Origin: Chlamydiales bacterium
Lineage (GTDB): Bacteria > Chlamydiota > Chlamydiia > Chlamydiales > JBDQID01
Assembly: GCA_047611865.1 (NCBI GenBank)
Contig: JBLFWS010000001.1
Location: forward strand, 12,408-76,407
Direction of reading: 5' to 3'
DNA: 64,000 nucleotides
Position numbers and translations under genes: made by a program. Below are positions 15,278 through 48,811 of this stretch, piece by piece. How positions within the stretch are numbered: the first letter of the stretch is position 1; every line of letters begins with the position of its first letter. The notes under the pieces were generated by a model. That model was not told the origin of the DNA, made no database searches, and was given only the letters and a program-made list of their open reading frames with translations.

Positions 15278-17711
15278 AATAGCTTCCTTTCTCGATCAAT
15301 GTTTTAAAACGATTCAAAAACTCAGAGCATAATCTTTTATAAGAAAACCTCTTTTTAACTAATTCTCTTAAATTGTTTCCTATTTTACTCCTCAGATCCG
15401 GCCTTGCTAAGTAATATCTGCTTTTTTCCAGCAATTCTTCTGAAGAAGAAAAGTAGTCAAAATGCTCTCCTGAAACAAGTTCTTCGGCCATCCTTGAATC
15501 CACAACTTCATCAGCAACCTTATAGACCAAAAAGAATGCGCCACAACTCCCCCCCTCTAAAATACGTAAATGGTGTTCGCTCCATGGGTTAATAGAAAGG
15601 TTAATTTTATTACGAAGAAACCTTTGGTGATATTCTTCTCTATTCTCTGAATGCCCTAAACTATATTTCTTAAGACTGGGAATCTTGTCCCAATTCTTTC
15701 CTGTTAAACCCAAGCTATACTTTTCTCTGTTGAGTAATTTTATAAAGTATGCACTAAGTTGCCTGTGATAATAAGAAAGCAGCTTCTCTTGCTCCTCCCG
15801 ATCTCTCCCCCATGACATAACTTCTGAGCGAAGTGTTCCTTTGGCTGAACGCACTCGCTGTAAAATCAATTCCTCAAGCTCTTTCACCTCTGATATATCT
15901 TTTTCATCCTTGCACACAATAATTTCAGTAAGCGATAAACTTGCACCCATTGTTTTTACATAACCGATATCAAACATCTCATCTTCACTAGGCACGGAAA
16001 TTTCTTTTTTCGGCATCCTTGTAGGCAAATAGTCACAAATCATCTGTAATTCGGGTACTCCTGAAACTAAATACGCTTCTTTAAAACCTGGTAAGAGAAA
16101 ATAAAGCAGGTCATGCTTATTCAAAGGCTCTTGTGCCAAATTGTGAGCTGCGTCGAAATGAGGACCTACATCCTGAATTGAGTAAAGAGTGGGTACCTGA
16201 CTAGAAGAGTTTATTGCCCGAAAACCTTTCGTAAAGTTAGGACTTCTGACAAATAAGTCTGGCTTCTCTCGGGACAACTCCAATTCCGTAGCATACATAT
16301 AATCCACCATTCCATAAGAGCAGGGCTCATGCACATAAACCTCGCAGCCCATCTCTTTAAAACACCCTGCACAATAGTCTGTAAAACGCTTAACTGAAAC
16401 TGAGACACAAGTTCTCTCAAGATATATCTTCGGTTTTGTTCCCTTTTGTATTGCATCCAGTCTACTTTGAAATTCCGCACTCTGATAGTAAGCTTCAATA
16501 CCCCTTCTGGATTCTTCTAATTCATTTAAGTAAGCTACTCGCGTCTGATAGATAGTTGTCCGCACTTTATCGGCAAACGGATGTCCTCCCTGCGCAATTA
16601 CTGTATTACAACTGTGTAGGGGAGAACGTAAATTAGATATCTCTCCTTCAAGATTTTCTTCCCATTCCAAAGAATACCAAAGCTTAAGCGTCCCCTTTTC
16701 GATAAAGCGACAGAACCTGTCATCTAAAAGAATCCCTTTAACGACAGCCATAAAAGAAAAAATCACCAGAATATTTAAAGGATACTTCTCTTTTTCCTGT
16801 TGTTCAATAAAACCTTCAAGATACTTTATTGATGGAGAAGTATCCACAAAGACGATTATAGGACCGTGACTCTCTAAGAGAGGAGCATCATATACCGGCA
16901 CTTCTGTCTTGTCATTATGAGTTCGCAAAAGCCCCGCACAAGCTACTTCGCTAAGATAATTCATATTCTTCAACAATAGACGCATTTCTTCATAAGACTG
17001 AAGAAGTTTACGCGTTTTGCTATATCGCAAAATATTTGGAACTTCCTTAGAGGGGAGCTTATTCAATCCACACTTCATCTGAAGGAAATAGAATGGAGGG
17101 GGCGAATATCCCAAGCCAATAAACTTAACTATGTCAGCAAACTTCTTGGAAATTTCACTATAATCTACTTGAAAATAGCGTTGTTTATCTTTTTGTAATC
17201 CAGATAAAAATCGATCATTTGCAAATAAAGCTGATATAATTTCCTCGCACTCCCTCGAAGAAAGTTTTTTCTCCAAGTTCTTATGAATTGCCAAGGTCTC
17301 TGCAATACCCTTTAAGACATTGCTAATTTCTTCACCAGGTCTTGCACTAACGGAATAACCCTGATTTTGTATTATCGATTTTAAGATCTCTTCATAAGGG
17401 CGCTGTATGTGAATTATATTCATACCTGATTCCATAGCTTCCGAGAAAAGCTTCAATTCTCCATCGAAATATTTTCGAGGATCCATTAATAGCTTCGACC
17501 CAACGATTTCAGCTTCACCTGTCTCCTTTTCAAGATATTTAGAAAGATTGAACTCCCCGTCATCTATGCATATCTGATAGCTCAAGGAAGCCACAGAAGA
17601 TGCCCACCTAAGCTCATCATCGCACCGAACTTCCCTCAAAGTATTAAGCATCGCCTGTAGCCAAGTTGCTCCACAACGAATATTGCCTACTATAAGAAAC
17701 TTTTTACTCAC
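15267..17711 (-). CDS. Sulfotransferase-like / CgeB-like glycosyltransferase fusion protein, paralog 3 (814 aa)
   Basis: Same blocks (VGNIRCGATWLQ; IHIQRPYEEILKS; NKINLSINPW; RILEGG; HFDYF). It overlaps paralog 2 by 11 nt. Confidence 0.6.
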   Translation of the reverse strand: MSKKFLIVGNIRCGATWLQAMLNTLREVRCDDELRWASSVASLSYQICIDDGEFNLSKYLEKETGEAEIVGSKLLMDPRKYFDGELKLFSEAMESGMNIIHIQRPYEEILKSIIQNQGYSVSARPGEEISNVLKGIAETLAIHKNLEKKLSSRECEEIISALFANDRFLSGLQKDKQRYFQVDYSEISKKFADIVKFIGLGYSPPPFYFLQMKCGLNKLPSKEVPNILRYSKTRKLLQSYEEMRLLLKNMNYLSEVACAGLLRTHNDKTEVPVYDAPLLESHGPIIVFVDTSPSIKYLEGFIEQQEKEKYPLNILVIFSFMAVVKGILLDDRFCRFIEKGTLKLWYSLEWEENLEGEISNLRSPLHSCNTVIAQGGHPFADKVRTTIYQTRVAYLNELEESRRGIEAYYQSAEFQSRLDAIQKGTKPKIYLERTCVSVSVKRFTDYCAGCFKEMGCEVYVHEPCSYGMVDYMYATELELSREKPDLFVRSPNFTKGFRAINSSSQVPTLYSIQDVGPHFDAAHNLAQEPLNKHDLLYFLLPGFKEAYLVSGVPELQMICDYLPTRMPKKEISVPSEDEMFDIGYVKTMGASLSLTEIIVCKDEKDISEVKELEELILQRVRSAKGTLRSEVMSWGRDREEQEKLLSYYHRQLSAYFIKLLNREKYSLGLTGKNWDKIPSLKKYSLGHSENREEYHQRFLRNKINLSINPWSEHHLRILEGGSCGAFFLVYKVADEVVDSRMAEELVSGEHFDYFSSSEELLEKSRYYLARPDLRSKIGNNLRELVKKRFSYKRLCSEFLNRFKTLIEKGSYCES

Positions 17712-43800: not shown

Positions 43801-44926
43801 CCTGAACTCCTGACAAAAGGCTTATTCGAAAAGCAAGAGCTCGCTGCTCCCCTTCACCAAGAGAAATGTCTTGCAATTCCTCACTCATCATCTCAAGAGT
43901 TCTACGGGAGCCTATGTTTTCCAATGAATCTTTTATCTCCAACAAGGCAAATAGCGCCTTTTGGTCGTTAGCAACCCCTTGCCCTATAGCTTCAGCTTGT
44001 TTTTCCTTACGTGTTGTCACAGCTTCAACTGTTGTATACGCCTGTTGAAGCTCTTCTCCACCTGATTGGTGACACTGCGCACACTTTGCCTGCATCAATC
44101 CGGAAACATAGAGGGGTGTTGTTTGAAAAAGCAGGTGATGTCCCGGCCTGCCATTAAACACTCTGGCCATTGCAGGATCGTTTTCTTCATCATTCTCAGT
44201 GAAAACTATTTTATGCCCCTCTGAAGACTCTTCATAGGTTCCATCATAAACCGGCCCATGGGCCCTTCCGGATGTAATAGATCGCCCATTACCATTGTGA
44301 CAAACAACACAACCAATTTCATCAGAGGAATGATACTCAAAAGGACGCTCTTCTCTACCAATCAGTGGGTGCATAGCAAGAGCTTTGGTCATATCCAGGG
44401 AATGCCCATGCTCTTCAATAGATTTCAAATGACTCAGACGTTCAGCCTCATCCAGGCGCCGCTGAATTTCTTCTTCTTCACCATTTTCTCTAAGCTGTTC
44501 TATAAGCTTTTTATCCGTGAGTGACGCTACCTTAGTATCAAGAAGCTTCCATACGTACTCTTCATTTTCGATTTGTACAGGACGGCCATTCTCTCCGATA
44601 ATCATGTTGCCATTTATATCATAAGCTATTTTTGTAGGAGAAAAATGACTCAACTTTAAAGCTACATGACATGTGGTACAGCGATCTATAGTTTCCGGAC
44701 CTTTGTCTTCCTTGGGGATAACAATCTGTTTAATTCCCAATTTAAAATCAGGGGCCCGTTCACCCGTATGAGTTGAGCGAAATTCCTCAAGATCTACATA
44801 AGTATTTTGATAGATCTTATATTCGGGAAACATCTCATAGTAGACGAAAACCCCAAATAATAATGCCGATACCACTGATAGAGAAATCAGTATTATTTGG
44901 TAAATGTCAGCCCGATCAAAACGCAT
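40823..44926 (-). CDS. Membrane-anchored heptahaem c-type cytochrome (1367 aa)
   Basis: An N-terminal TM helix. CXXCH motifs start at residues 83, 206, 282, 504, 620, 844 and 1049. Segments resemble CcoO (GRDIAPRL...NEWLIGHFRNP...RSIMPVM) and CcoP/class I domains (CMQCHG...GTPMPPWG; CSHCHGKEAAGDGP...GTAMTPWG). A haem-less charged helical tail spans ~1125-1367. Confidence 0.85.
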   Translation of the reverse strand: MRFDRADIYQIILISLSVVSALLFGVFVYYEMFPEYKIYQNTYVDLEEFRSTHTGERAPDFKLGIKQIVIPKEDKGPETIDRCTTCHVALKLSHFSPTKIAYDINGNMIIGENGRPVQIENEEYVWKLLDTKVASLTDKKLIEQLRENGEEEEIQRRLDEAERLSHLKSIEEHGHSLDMTKALAMHPLIGREERPFEYHSSDEIGCVVCHNGNGRSITSGRAHGPVYDGTYEESSEGHKIVFTENDEENDPAMARVFNGRPGHHLLFQTTPLYVSGLMQAKCAQCHQSGGEELQQAYTTVEAVTTRKEKQAEAIGQGVANDQKALFALLEIKDSLENIGSRRTLEMMSEELQDISLGEGEQRALAFRISLLSGVQDYLQKTDKYVDDEAVLNAINGEISKILGSEIYLRKLEAEARALASSPTETLLGFLSRHVSNGKGISGSIFAKMAAMEEAGEVIQLMDRVKAPLETAILDQELVHGLRSDAEDAMGSYFRGQQLYMSTACYACHKIGGLSRGQVGPDLSEIGQMYPWYVKEAIVWPQSNLKTSTMPNFKLDHEEVEDLLAFLMAQRKEDKTTSEVLTQVSLKEWAGGKKRAWEKPLPVSEWNDVEVAMDIYTNEGCASCHRLKGFESNVGYRVEKEEASFKEVFKERQWFYRLFPEDLIGSRIVDMIDQKGQEIDKRIVQNVRESSILEKIEEKTPKILSSFYSPFKYAMRAKNHHYEQLIAKAESSTERSRILEEHEHYKDLVQRVFMMYIQEYGLGRDIAPRLHWSGVYRDNEWLIGHFRNPSAYTARSIMPVMPLDESKFYALTNMLRVLGKQNRDSLREIWDERGFDPAMAYEWHCMQCHGEHFHGKGTVSQWIYPIPKNLRDATFLRNLTRERAVNSITHGVQGTPMPPWGETAAAAELGDSSALLKESEIERIVDWLFQSLPGAHVIKSENDVEKWKYTPEDVLKELYEEKDVLQGETEDKVDDSMSEVLSSGFIPNFLLATKFFKSEEKKIGKAPEVDEVFDVKDAVEGVEEKEFFIKQKYYTEKNISEGGSLFLANCSHCHGKEAAGDGPRSATMEEAKPRMLTNLPWLKTRDDLRLLRSIKYGVPGTAMTPWGDKTNTLQRIQLVMFIRSLSVEKKHREDMVSVLFNAFETTGRAISDTRNIEGKKLNVLQGEYKRALRARQDNYEKSQEGTITLEEAARSYSKELVVMDHLKKRKEVDAILLNLKDEFDDEQKFYSEIGLRFIAKKADEKIITKLFEIIALNKGRYTRLNGDLLMEKDPYRERFMQNKAQEIVRDLDHQVDVNQRKVDRLRGKLPSLERSDELAKVGERLEAMKGMKAVLLSQMRLAAQSRSKQAEIYENYKEKIATFVSDRS

Positions 44927-44941
44927 TATCGTCTCCCACCA

Positions 44942-46267
44942 TTAGTGTCTTGCAAAGTTCTCCGTCCATGGCCAAATCCATCCCCAGTTTGCCCCTCTGA
45001 AGTACGTTCCAATTATTACCAGGATTCCCTGTGTCGTCATAAAAAACGTGTACAAAAATATCGCCATATATCGGCTGCGGTGATACCACACGCCTGATCC
45101 ATAGGGATTTCTATCAAGATAAGGGACTACCATAAGCCCCACAACAATTAACCCTGGTATTCCTACACCACCCCAGAAAGCACTATAAGCAACCATCTCT
45201 TGAAGACCCAGAAAATACCACGGAGCCTTTGAGGGATTGGGGGGTTTTGTTGCGTTCGCCGCCTCTTCCAATGGTGCATCTATAAATGATAAAATCATGA
45301 TCAAAACTACGGTAAACATAAATGCAATTAACTCGGCACGAAGAAGGTGCGGCCAAGTAAATATGTAGTTATATGGTCCCCTATCAACAGTGGGACACGT
45401 CCCTCTAACAAGCTCCATTAAGCCGTAGGTTCTGCGAACCCCCGGCGCAAAAGTCTCCTTAGTATCCGATCTTTGTACAACACGATAGGGTTCTGGTGAA
45501 ACTTTGTCCGGAGGACGCGCCAAGCCACCATCTTTTCTAATACGCCAGAAGTGTACTCCTATTAAAATCCCCGCGGCAAGGGGGAGCACCATCACGTGAA
45601 GTACGTAAAATCGTATGAGTGCATCTTGTCCAACGCTGGTGGACGCAATAAGCATAATACGGTTAATGTTGTGTTCCATTCCGGGTATTCCCGGAGCATA
45701 GCCAGCAATTTCAGATCCTACAGTTACCGCCCAAAATGCCAGCTGATCCCAAGGAAGAAGGTATCCAGTAAAAGACAGCAGGAGGGTAAGCACCATTAGA
45801 ATCACGCCAATTACCCAGTTAAATCTTCTTTCTCCTTTATAGGAACCCATATAGAAGACACGCGACATATGGAGAAAGACGAACAACACCATCATGTGTG
45901 CACCCCAGCGGTGCAAATTACGAAACATCTGAGCGAAAGGCGTCACATCCTGCCAGTCTTTCATAATGTCGTAAGCCCTGTCTTCTGCAGGCACATAATA
46001 AAACATAAGCACCACACCAGTGATCACCAGTGTAATAAACAGGCTCATCGTAATGGAGCCGAGACCCAAAGTCTTGAAAAAATCCGTTGTGCTTTTGTGA
46101 CATTTCACCGGGTGAATATGAAGGAAGAAGTTCTTAAAAACAATTTCTGATCGGTCAACATCATTGTTGGGATAACCATGACGAAAGATGGAACGTACCA
46201 CTAGTTTAGGAAGGTTCTCTAGGTACTCCAACCAGGTCTCTCTCTTTTCCCCTTTAAAAACTGCCAT
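44942..46267 (-). CDS. Cytochrome b (fused b6 + subunit IV-type) of a Rieske/cyt b complex
   Basis: FRNLHRWGAHMMVLFVFLHM and RFYVLHVMVLP...GVHFWRIRK (bis-His haem ligands), plus LPWDQLAFWA (PEWY-region equivalent). Confidence 0.85.
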   Translation of the reverse strand: MAVFKGEKRETWLEYLENLPKLVVRSIFRHGYPNNDVDRSEIVFKNFFLHIHPVKCHKSTTDFFKTLGLGSITMSLFITLVITGVVLMFYYVPAEDRAYDIMKDWQDVTPFAQMFRNLHRWGAHMMVLFVFLHMSRVFYMGSYKGERRFNWVIGVILMVLTLLLSFTGYLLPWDQLAFWAVTVGSEIAGYAPGIPGMEHNINRIMLIASTSVGQDALIRFYVLHVMVLPLAAGILIGVHFWRIRKDGGLARPPDKVSPEPYRVVQRSDTKETFAPGVRRTYGLMELVRGTCPTVDRGPYNYIFTWPHLLRAELIAFMFTVVLIMILSFIDAPLEEAANATKPPNPSKAPWYFLGLQEMVAYSAFWGGVGIPGLIVVGLMVVPYLDRNPYGSGVWYHRSRYMAIFLYTFFMTTQGILVIIGTYFRGANWGWIWPWTENFARH

Positions 46268-46305: not shown

Positions 46306-46806
46306 CTAAACATACCATGCAACCTGTGGATCGTGTATTAGTTTTGTTTTATCTGCCAGAAGTTCTCCTGACGCTCCTTTTGAAACATTAAAATATACCA
46401 ATGGGCTAGGAGCAGGCCCTCCCGTATTAAAGCCATTCCGATCATATGTTGATCCGTGACATGGACATTGATATCCTGTTTCTACAGCGTTAACAGTGCA
46501 GCCCAAGTGAGTACAAACTGCCGTTTGAACACGTACTTTTCCAGAAACCACCTCAACAAAACACTTGAACTTCTCCAGAAAAACCTTTCCCTCTGTTGCC
46601 AGAACATCCTCTGGCCTTCCAATTGAAAAAACGCTAGGCGGAATTTTCAGAGCGTTAGGGTAAAGAAAACCCATAAGCGCAACACTCACAGCTCCTCCAA
46701 CACCCATACACACACCCGTTCCCATCAAGGCAAGAAAAGTCCTTCTTGTAATTTTTGGGTCATTGCTCTTAGGATCCACGTTTAATGAATTTCGAAACCT
46801 AGGCAT
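46306..46806 (-). CDS. Rieske [2Fe-2S] protein with Tat signal
   Basis: TRRTFLALMGTG twin-arginine signal, CTHLGC and CPCHGS cluster boxes. I prefer the ATG at 46806 (AAGGAGG 5 nt upstream) over the track ATG at 46821, which sits inside that SD. Confidence 0.85.
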   Translation of the reverse strand: MPRFRNSLNVDPKSNDPKITRRTFLALMGTGVCMGVGGAVSVALMGFLYPNALKIPPSVFSIGRPEDVLATEGKVFLEKFKCFVEVVSGKVRVQTAVCTHLGCTVNAVETGYQCPCHGSTYDRNGFNTGGPAPSPLVYFNVSKGASGELLADKTKLIHDPQVAWYV

Positions 46807-46817
46807 AACACCCTCCT

Positions 46818-46961
46818 TCATTCTCCATTTTGTTCCTCATCACGAAACATCTGGTATTTAACATCTTCCAAATCATCGAACTGCCCTTTTTTCCAAAAAT
46901 AGACAAAGACTCCAGTCGCCGCTAACCCACCAATTAATGTCGCTGCAAGATATACTACCAC
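46818..46961 (-). CDS. Unannotated 47-aa FixQ/CcoQ-like single-TM micro-protein
   Basis: Translated by hand as (V)VVYLAATLIGGLAATGVFVYFWKKGQFDDLEDVKYQMFRDEEQNGE*. GTG start at 46961 with GAAGGGG upstream, and an in-frame TGA at 46976-46974 bounds it. The stop TGA (46820-46818) overlaps the Rieske SD region. It shares FVYxW(K/R)KG..D....KYQM..DEE with the ORF at 37867-38085. Confidence 0.5.
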   Translation of the reverse strand: MVVYLAATLIGGLAATGVFVYFWKKGQFDDLEDVKYQMFRDEEQNGE

Positions 46962-46978
46962 TCCATCGCCCCTTCATA

Positions 46979-48811
46979 CTATCCAATCCACCGAAAAGAG
47001 TAATTCATCGTATCCATTGTAACAGCTTGAGTAGGACATTTTTCGGCACACAACCCACAACGTATACAAAGGTCTTCATCTTTCAACATTGCAGACCCTG
47101 CTGTATTAAGTTCTTCAGCTGTCATTTCAGAAGAATCGAATCCATAGTTATTGTCCACAGCTTTACGCATATTGCCCTCTCCCCAATCCAAGTTCAATTT
47201 CGATAAAGGTATCAACGTAAGACAATTTGTAGGGCAAACATCTACACAACCATTACATTTTATACAAAGAGATCCATCAAATACTGGACTTACATGACAC
47301 TGTAAACAACGACTTGCTTGCTGATGCGCCTCTTCTGCAGTATAAGGATTTTCAACAATATTTAGATTTTTCCGCCTCTCCTCTGCCGGCTGAAGAGAAG
47401 GAAGAGACCATTTTGTACTCAGGTATTCTTTATCTCGCATAGGTGGAATTGTTCTGAACTCTCCAACGAACTCCTGGTAAGGCTTTGTTCCTCTCAAATC
47501 ACTGTCAATAGCCCTTGCAGATTCTTGCCCATGACGTATTGCTGTAATGAACAACGCAGGCCCATATCCGGCATCCCCCCCACAATAAATCCCATTTACA
47601 GATGTTCTACCAGTTCCTCTTTCTACTTTTATAATTCCCCTTTCAAGGGTAAGGTCAGCTTTCTTGTCCCACCCGTCAAAAAGACTCGTATCCATTCCCT
47701 GGCCGATAGCTAAAGCTATGGTATCACAAGGCACAACATACTCTGTTCCTTCAACAAACTCGGGTGAAAAACCCCCTTTATGATTAAAAAGTCGAGAGAT
47801 CTTCTGTACACGCAGCCCAATAATCTTCCCGTCGCTGTCACGTTCCACCGCCTTTGGACCTAGCCTGTTGAGGACCTCAATTCCCTCTTCAAGCGCATCT
47901 TCAATCTCAAATTCATCAGCTGTTTGTTCATCTCGAGATTCCAGGCAAACCAGAGTAACCTTATCAGCTCCATTGCGTATAGAAGACCGCGCCACATCGT
48001 AAGATACGTTACCCCCACCAACAACGACTATATGATTACCTATTCTCCATTTCCCCCCGCCCGTAATCACCTTAAGATACTCTACGCCTCTGATTATGTC
48101 TGCCTGGTCTGTTCCGGGAATGGGTAACTCTCGGGACTTCCATAAACCATTGCCGATAAAAATCGCGTCATACTTTTCCTGCATTTCAGTAATCGTTATA
48201 TCTCGGCCAACTTTCGTATTATAGTGGATATTAGCGCCCAAGTATTCTATCGCATAGCATTCGTTGATGATTACATCATTTTTCAGTCTGTAATTGGGGA
48301 CACCATAGGTTAACATCCCCCCTGGCATACTCATCATTTCATAAATATCGACAGAATATCCCAAGCGAAGAAGGTCGTGTGCTGCCGTTAACGAGGCCAC
48401 TCCCGCCCCTATGCAACCCACCTTCATTCCATTCGGTTTTGGGTTGGTCGTTCCACGTGAGTAGCTAAATTCCAGAGCTTTAATGTGAGCTTCCTTATCC
48501 ACCCCGAACCACTCATCGAGAAAACGTTTTTGTGCACGAATGGTAAGAGTTTTATCTACTCGATCTCTCCGACAGGCTGTTTCACAGGGAGCCCCGCATA
48601 TCCATCCACAGATAGACGCGAAAGGATTAGGCCCTCGAGCAATTTTATAACCCTCCAAAAGGTTACCTGCTTGTAACGCAAGCATATACCCTCGAGCATC
48701 TGTATTAACAGGACATCCGTCGCGACAGTCGATTTGTTTCAGATAATAATCTAGATCTGGAATAACAACGTCATAACTATCTTTATAGATATCAACCAGC
48801 TCTTTTGACAC
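46979..48811 (-). CDS. GltD/SudA-like NAD(P)H-dependent Fe-S flavoprotein with C-terminal 2x[4Fe-4S] ferredoxin domain
   Basis: An N-terminal Cys cluster (CRDGCPVNTD...CGWICGAPCETAC), VGCIGAGVASLTAAHDL (FAD GxGxxG) and a second dinucleotide fold (VVVGGGNVSYD). C-terminal CIKCNGCVDVCP and CIRCGLCAEKCP. Confidence 0.8.
   Translation of the reverse strand: MSKELVDIYKDSYDVVIPDLDYYLKQIDCRDGCPVNTDARGYMLALQAGNLLEGYKIARGPNPFASICGWICGAPCETACRRDRVDKTLTIRAQKRFLDEWFGVDKEAHIKALEFSYSRGTTNPKPNGMKVGCIGAGVASLTAAHDLLRLGYSVDIYEMMSMPGGMLTYGVPNYRLKNDVIINECYAIEYLGANIHYNTKVGRDITITEMQEKYDAIFIGNGLWKSRELPIPGTDQADIIRGVEYLKVITGGGKWRIGNHIVVVGGGNVSYDVARSSIRNGADKVTLVCLESRDEQTADEFEIEDALEEGIEVLNRLGPKAVERDSDGKIIGLRVQKISRLFNHKGGFSPEFVEGTEYVVPCDTIALAIGQGMDTSLFDGWDKKADLTLERGIIKVERGTGRTSVNGIYCGGDAGYGPALFITAIRHGQESARAIDSDLRGTKPYQEFVGEFRTIPPMRDKEYLSTKWSLPSLQPAEERRKNLNIVENPYTAEEAHQQASRCLQCHVSPVFDGSLCIKCNGCVDVCPTNCLTLIPLSKLNLDWGEGNMRKAVDNNYGFDSSEMTAEELNTAGSAMLKDEDLCIRCGLCAEKCPTQAVTMDTMNYSFRWIG

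Follow-up and report, generated by a model that had tools for sequence, protein, structure and literature searches.

A CcoS/FixS-family micro-protein gene 5' of the Rieske gene and its diverged paralogue in a bc-cbb3 superoperon of a Chlamydiales bacterium

The chlamydial DNA analysed here, a stretch of 64,000 nucleotides (the window), harbours on its reverse strand a respiratory operon in which the genes of a cytochrome bc complex continue into ccoN and ccoO of a cbb3-type (C-family) haem-copper oxidase (Table 1). The flavoprotein stop (46979) and the Rieske gene (46821) are separated by a gap of 157 nt, which contains a very short ORF (m1). This raises the question whether m1 is a gene at all, to which protein family its product and that of a second small ORF behind ccoO (m2) belong, and which part of the respiratory chain the two may serve.

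Table 1 Features of the respiratory operon in the window
Feature	Position	Strand	Basis or remark
98-aa protein, one TM helix, 3' of m2	37578..37874	-	FixP_N-like family resemblance
m2, diverged CcoS paralogue directly 3' of ccoO	37867..38085	-	BLASTP, hhalign, synteny, public calls
CcoO-like mono-haem subunit, 427 aa	38099..39382	-	FixO domain, residues 268-370 only
CcoN-like catalytic subunit, divergent C-family haem-copper oxidase	39379..40812	-	Pfam COX1, TIGR00780
Multi-haem cytochrome c, 1367 aa, CcoP-like and cytochrome c domains	40823..44926	-	Domain matches
Cytochrome b, fused b6 and subunit IV type	44942..46267	-	Domain matches
Rieske iron-sulfur subunit	46306..46821	-	Start 46821 or 46806
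m1 stop/Rieske start junction	46812..46821	-	Sequence and two gene callers
m1, 47-aa CcoS/FixS-family micro-protein gene	46818..46961	-	ORF and translation, Pfam, hhalign, dN/dS, AF2, public calls
AAGGGG Shine-Dalgarno-like site	46969..46974	-	7 nt 5' of m1 GTG, read directly
NAD(P)-binding flavoprotein, 610 aa, 4Fe-4S domains, first gene of the chlamydial operon	46979..48811	-	Domain matches

Coding status of m1

Read on the reverse strand, m1 extends from a GTG (46961-46959) to a TGA (46820-46818) and encodes the product (M/V)VVYLAATLIGGLAATGVFVYFWKKGQFDDLEDVKYQMFRDEEQNGE. The start codon is preceded by a Shine-Dalgarno-like site (Table 1) and by an in-frame TGA at 46976-46974, and the GTG is retained in the closest relative (locus L081). 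At its 3' end, the TGA of m1 overlaps the ATG of the longest Rieske ORF (46821; ATGA) as well as an AAGGAGG site (46818-46812) serving an alternative Rieske ATG at 46806; the gene callers are split on the Rieske start, one favouring 46821 and the other 46806. In Acidobacteriota, the overlap between m1 and the Rieske gene amounts to 17-32 nt. A consensus scan for promoters and terminators around m1 detected promoter-like sites less often than in shuffled sequence, and none convincing at the gap.

Two independent gene callers predict m1, and a protein identical over all 47 residues is present in NCBI under the name 'nitrogen fixation-related uncharacterized protein [Chlamydiales bacterium]'. Gene calls for it exist in two Logan assemblies and on contig JBNMMU010000001.1 of assembly GCA_051270155.1, in every case together with a precomputed Pfam FixS match. 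An earlier reading of this DNA by eye and translation (the sequence-only reading) had reported the coordinates, the GTG, the upstream stop, the translation and the length of the gap, all of which proved exact on re-reading; the overlap of the m1 stop with the ribosome-binding region of the Rieske gene, also part of that reading, is accounted for by the AAGGAGG site. Its attribute 'unannotated' applies solely to the gene track and size cut-off that it used, given the public calls of the identical protein.

Comparison of m1 with its counterpart in L081 (85 % amino-acid identity) revealed 10 synonymous and 7 non-synonymous differences (dN/dS 0.13). Across 14 chlamydial loci, the 15 codons of the tail motif contain 4, 4 and 15 variable sites at codon positions 1, 2 and 3, respectively; the same count for m2 gives 10, 7 and 13 of 14 variable. 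The conservation and purifying selection that the sequence-only reading had proposed to look for are therefore evident, with m1 orthologues occurring in three phyla, and the frameshifts or stops that it had named as contrary evidence are absent from all 34 recovered orthologues.

A TM helix spanning approximately residues 2-25 and a cytoplasmic tail, KKGQFDDLEDVKYQMFRDEE, are predicted for the product of m1. The AF2 model, built from alignment A4, comprises two helices (residues 2-25 and 27-46) with a mean pLDDT of 86. Most of the conserved positions lie in the tail (F28, E32, K35, Y36 and F39), the helix being variable. The sole indication of topology is provided by the KK/RK directly after the helix, which according to the positive-inside rule would place the tail in the cytoplasm. 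Sequence search against the PDB returned only chance matches to hydrophobic stretches.

The shortness of m1 and the overlap of its stop with the Rieske start region could also be taken to indicate a chance ORF, a regulatory leader or spacer coupling translation to that of the Rieske gene, or an RNA element within the gap. Such an explanation is hardly credible, since it is opposed by the protein-level conservation in three phyla, the prevalence of third-position variation, the dN/dS of 0.13 and the significant Pfam match of m1 (see below), while Rfam provided no credible match for the gap around m1 (best 15.4 bits versus a gathering score of 45, E = 0.29). Thus, m1 is a genuine and conserved gene for a single-helix membrane micro-protein.

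Family assignment of m1 and m2

With 27.1 bits (E = 3.5e-6), the m1 protein exceeds the gathering cut-off of Pfam FixS (PF03597; 23.1 bits), and this family is matched by 31 of the 34 m1 orthologues (E <= 0.01; best E = 6.9e-12). On the NCBIfam CcoS equivalog (TIGR00847), m1 attains 15.6 bits and remains below the cut-off of 28.35; it is therefore a member of the family, not certified as functionally equivalent. Profile-profile comparison (hhalign) of the m1 orthologues (A1) with an alignment of 22 named alphaproteobacterial CcoS proteins (A3) gave a probability of 97.9 % (E = 4.2e-13, 48 columns), and that of the m2 orthologues (A2) with the same set 93.5 % (E = 2.2e-7, 35 columns). The corresponding values against S. 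meliloti FixQ are 2.3 % (E = 0.02) for m1 and 8.3 % (E = 0.004) for m2; CcoS (A3) itself yields 1.1 % (E = 0.05) against FixQ. The reference proteins FixS, FixQ, FixN and FixP were translated from the DNA of S. meliloti pSymA, where motifs and the order of the ORFs identified them, and a tblastn search of m1 against plasmids produced a single marginal match. The family motif GQ(F/Y)(D/E)D-x-(E/D) is found in the tail of m1 (KKGQFDDLED) and in S. meliloti FixS (GQYEDLDG), and in the alignment of the m1 and CcoS profiles GQFDD falls on GQYED. Based on these profile comparisons and the coinciding motif, m1 and m2 are relatives of CcoS/FixS and not of CcoQ/FixQ.

The sequence-only reading had recognized in both ORFs the form of FixQ/CcoQ and had recommended an HMM search with that family. 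Size and single-helix layout are indeed alike, m2 appears to reside in the ccoQ slot (see below), and one m2 orthologue reaches 22.8 bits on Pfam FixQ (PF05545), under the cut-off of 29. However, FixQ is matched neither by m1 (E <= 1) nor by m2 (E <= 10) of the window, whereas m1 passes FixS; sub-threshold FixQ matches are confined to 1 of the 34 m1 and 1 of the 21 m2 orthologues, and in the profile comparisons FixQ falls far behind CcoS. Family membership of both ORFs in FixQ/CcoQ is ruled out by Pfam and profile comparison, and their being subunits of this type is correspondingly very improbable.

The proposed paralogy of m1 with the small ORF behind ccoO withstood closer inspection: the two proteins share 18 of 34 residues in a single BLASTP comparison (53 %, E = 3e-12), the profiles A1 and A2 align with 98 % (E = 2.9e-13), and jackhmmer over all six-frame ORFs of the window retrieved exactly two copies, m1 and m2. 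The conserved core of m2 (51 aa) begins at ATG 38022 and the publicly annotated form (72 aa) at ATG 38085, with the stop at 37867; public and Logan records call it with 72-74 aa. HMM cross-scores support reciprocal-best orthology of m1 across phyla and identify m2 as the more diverged copy. The latter has no match to TIGR00847, and in the window scores 12.6 bits on Pfam FixS (below the cut-off of 23.1); 5 of 21 m2 orthologues match FixS (E <= 0.1), one of them above the cut-off. The GQFDD motif of m1 has degenerated to GRLDMD in m2 (RKGRLDMDEE). Orthology of the m2 copies of Chlamydiota and Acidobacteriota is weakly indicated, mainly by synteny, the HMM cross-scores being weak.

In both of these phyla m2 is located 3' of ccoO, and in the window it lies between ccoO and the gene for a 98-aa protein, which the public records likewise call. 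The family of the latter (~100 aa, motif EYxxGxI...P.FLK) is kept in 21 chlamydial and acidobacterial loci; the member in locus L034 is encoded at 15351-15650. Pfam FixP_N is matched by 3 of the 21 members (best E = 5.8e-6), no Pfam match was obtained for the window copy, and the hhalign comparison of the family with the N-terminus of S. meliloti FixP is weak (38 %, E = 3e-4). By its sequence, the 98-aa protein looks like a free-standing, haem-less N-terminal anchor of CcoP. If this weak FixP_N assignment is accepted, the order ccoN-ccoO-m2-(ccoP N-terminus only) would mirror ccoNOQP with m2 in the ccoQ slot, m1 being encoded elsewhere. The likening to CcoQ may hold in part, namely for the operon position of m2, but not for its sequence family. 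The operons of Kiritimatiellota contain ccoNO and m1 alone, with no m2. In this phylum (locus L048, 15090-16331), ccoO is instead followed by an ORF of 56 aa that bears no relation to m2 and has its TM helix at the C-terminus; behind it lies the gene for a CcoG-like, cysteine-rich membrane protein.

Operon context across phyla

A total of 80 loci, fetched by cytochrome b similarity, was mapped with the operon proteins of the window. In Planctomycetota, Verrucomicrobiota and many others, the bc operons are devoid of the oxidase, whereas in Chlamydiota, Acidobacteriota and Kiritimatiellota they continue into ccoN-ccoO. All 27 evaluable bc loci with ccoN have an m1 gene directly 5' of the Rieske gene, compared with none of the 35 lacking ccoN (exception L004, see below); these counts are not phylogenetically independent and cover three phyla and two gene orders. 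The connection of the micro-ORF to the oxidase, as envisaged by the sequence-only reading, is borne out by this distribution. The sole locus with m1 kept and no ccoN/ccoO within 10 kb is L004 (5862-14393), which belongs to a chlamydial MAG and is rearranged. It retains the flavoprotein, m1, Rieske, cytochrome b and a shortened cytochrome c (1103 aa), and an intervening opposite-strand ORF of 423 aa separates m1 from the flavoprotein gene.

A profile search with m1 retrieved no fewer than 2455 protein clusters, and the top-scoring of these are mostly named 'hypothetical protein'. In the reverse test, all three m1-like proteins on long contigs (3/3) were found at the head of the order m1-Rieske-cytochrome b-cytochrome c-COX1-FixO-small-small-flavoprotein. 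In the operon of Acidobacteriota, m1 is the first gene and the flavoprotein gene is at the far end. The acidobacterial loci L087 (8590-18204) and L088 (8516-18195) are flanked by a gene for an Rrf2-family regulator (5') and a DsbD_2 (CcdA-like) gene (3'), the latter followed in L087 by a FixG/CcoG-like gene; biogenesis genes are thus part of the same cluster. On a Blastocatellales-type contig (L086, 14542-16246), genes for a FAD-dependent monooxygenase-like protein and a DUF7670 protein are located between COX1 (ccoN) and FixO (ccoO). On contig JBNMMU010000001.1, no genes for a Cu-ATPase, CcoG or CcoH are present within 10 kb.

In the window, CcoN scores 264.7 bits over its full length on TIGR00780 (ccoN), below the cut-off of 583; the motifs of the haem and CuB ligands (RPxH, YxHNxVG, YxWxGxHH and GHxH) are kept in the alignment with S. 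meliloti FixN. Among the NCBIfam models, cytochrome b best matches those of ExtP/ExtQ from operons for selenite/tellurite reduction, with scores of 244 and 72 bits that fall short of the cut-offs. The CcoO-like protein has 427 aa versus 189 aa in its acidobacterial counterparts from the same operon, and a stretch of ~250 residues inserted after its N-terminal anchor is without family match. Likewise, the cytochrome c, with 1367 aa, is longer than its acidobacterial counterparts (about 410-615 aa), and includes a long charged stretch near the C-terminus without family match. Just 3' of the respiratory operon, a 585-aa ORF (34991-36748, reverse strand) displays ankyrin-repeat-like repeats in its C-terminal part; ankyrin-repeat ORFs are typical of amoeba-associated Chlamydiae.

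Operons in which complex III genes stand beside those of a cbb3-type (C-family) oxidase have been described for Acidobacteria as complex III/IV 'superoperons' and proposed to form supercomplexes (PMC8407424); Terriglobus roseus KBS 63 and Acidobacterium capsulatum 161 are among the carriers named there. The arrangement in the window is of this kind; different from the acidobacterial one, the chlamydial version starts with the flavoprotein gene, and its genes for CcoO and cytochrome c are enlarged. Neither ccoS or fixS nor the small ORFs are mentioned in the text and those supplements of PMC8407424 that were searched, and a literature search for CcoS in bc operons, CcoS paralogues and chlamydial bc-cbb3 clusters retrieved no description of these ORFs. 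Hence, m1 represents a known family and a gene already called publicly, in a context that is conserved but little described.

Possible functions of m1 and m2

For Rhodobacter capsulatus, CcoS is described as a protein of 52 aa with an experimentally known N-out/C-in orientation, an indispensable cytosolic C-terminal part and a key residue D33 (PMC12648545, citing Rauch et al. 2025). In PMC12648545 and PMC8267372, CcoS is reported to contact CcoN, CcoP and the Cu chaperone SenC, and to be needed for the haem b-CuB centre in CcoN, the complex assembling in the absence of CcoS but remaining inactive. The CcoS/FixS proteins of R. capsulatus, Bradyrhizobium and Sinorhizobium (PF03597, TIGR00847) resemble m1 in (i) their length of ~50 aa with one N-terminal TM helix, (ii) an acidic cytoplasmic tail with the motif G-Q-(F/Y)-(D/E)-D-x-(D/E), and (iii) the strict genomic association with ccoN/ccoO. 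On the model of the R. capsulatus protein, m1 may be envisaged as a single-pass inner-membrane protein with an N-terminal TM helix and a short acidic cytoplasmic helix, which would act in the biogenesis of the cbb3-type (C-family) oxidase of the same operon and help to insert the haem b3-CuB centre into CcoN. Both m1 and its presumed client CcoN would be produced from one transcript, with translation of m1 being coupled to that of Rieske. As an older, more diverged duplicate located in the apparent ccoQ slot of the operon, m2 may by now provide further help in assembly or stabilise the oxidase as a CcoQ-like subunit. Because size, layout, conserved acidic tail and exclusive association with ccoNO match CcoS, the role of m1 as a CcoS-type helper is best supported, and on this analogy m1 is probably, if by no means certainly, a translated cofactor-insertion factor for CcoN with m2 as its diverged duplicate.

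In several respects m1 differs from canonical CcoS. It stays below the equivalog cut-off, and its subfamily has an invariant signature of its own (K-Y-Q-x-F). The position aligned with D33, which is invariant in alphaproteobacteria, is occupied by D in Chlamydiota and by N, S or D in Acidobacteriota. While canonical ccoS is found with ccoI in ccoGHIS, m1 is encoded directly 5' of the Rieske gene in the bc-cbb3 superoperon; clustering as ccoGHIS is not universal, the genes being scattered in C. jejuni (PMC8267372). Chlamydiota and Acidobacteriota moreover possess two paralogues, and the client oxidase is without a normal CcoP. Locus L004, in which m1 persists with no ccoNO inside 10 kb, likewise speaks against the helper role. 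A plain assembly-factor model predicts neither the fixed position in front of the Rieske gene nor the tight coupling to it, the two copies, the KYQxF signature or the variability at D33. These five misfits make it conceivable, though not likely, that the micro-proteins act structurally or as tethers within a bc-cbb3 supercomplex.

One may accordingly speculate that one or both micro-proteins stay permanently in an obligate bc-cbb3 supercomplex as subunits or tethers, contributing interface helices derived from CcoS; tethering peptides were also considered in the sequence-only reading. This would agree with the invariable location of m1 immediately 5' of, and translationally coupled to, the Rieske gene, with its restriction to operons in which bc and ccoNO genes are fused, and with the apparent placement of m2 in the structural CcoQ slot, between ccoO and the gene resembling the CcoP N-terminus. 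In an oxidase without normal CcoP, extra helices could replace lost contacts, and supercomplexes have been proposed for the acidobacterial superoperons (PMC8407424). Precedents for extra bound helices are CcoM of Pseudomonas stutzeri and CcoH, small single-TM proteins reported as partners of cbb3 oxidases or of a bc1-cbb3 supercomplex obtained by engineering (PMC4742706, PMC7876108). In contrast to m1, CcoM and CcoH are encoded elsewhere and are not CcoS-like, the likeness drawn here being one of description only. Similarly, CcoQ/FixQ (PF05545) is a structural subunit that resembles m1 and m2 in size and single helix, and m2 apparently also in operon position, but is unrelated to both in sequence, and m1 is not in the ccoQ position. 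Against tethers or subunits speaks that the TM segment, i.e. the part which would have to pack against partners, is least conserved, conservation residing in the cytoplasmic tail as in CcoS, and that the homologue CcoS is described in PMC12648545 as an assembly factor and not as an oxidase subunit. Recruitment of a CcoS-derived pair into the fused bc-cbb3 module of Chlamydiota, Acidobacteriota and Kiritimatiellota, with m1 as a subunit coupling or tethering bc to the oxidase and m2 replacing CcoQ, is on balance unlikely; if true, it would mean that an assembly factor gave rise to structural components of such a supercomplex.

Still less probable, indeed rather remote, is a division of duties in which m1 serves the bc half, e.g. 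in the maturation of haem b or of the Rieske cluster, and m2 the oxidase half. The neighbourhood of m1 to Rieske and cytochrome b and that of m2 to ccoNO would fit such a division, and the sequence-only reading had assigned one copy to the bc half. However, none of the 35 homologous bc operons without ccoNO contains an m1-like ORF, and the bc complex therefore does not need m1; Kiritimatiellota combine ccoNO with m1 in the absence of m2; and it is m1, not m2, that is closer to functional CcoS. The assignment of a copy to the bc half is hence not sustained.

Taken together, the label of m1 changes from CcoQ-like to CcoS-like, and nothing known of CcoS is overturned. In at least three phyla, bc operons joined to a C-family oxidase are marked by a distinct KYQxF subfamily of CcoS, and many of these operons also contain a decayed second copy in the apparent ccoQ slot. 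m1 can thus serve as a simple genomic marker for bc-cbb3 superoperons. As a pair, m1 and m2 are candidates to be followed in supercomplex purification, and likewise in work on the way in which cofactors reach cbb3 oxidases without CcoP, CcoQ or CcoI neighbours.
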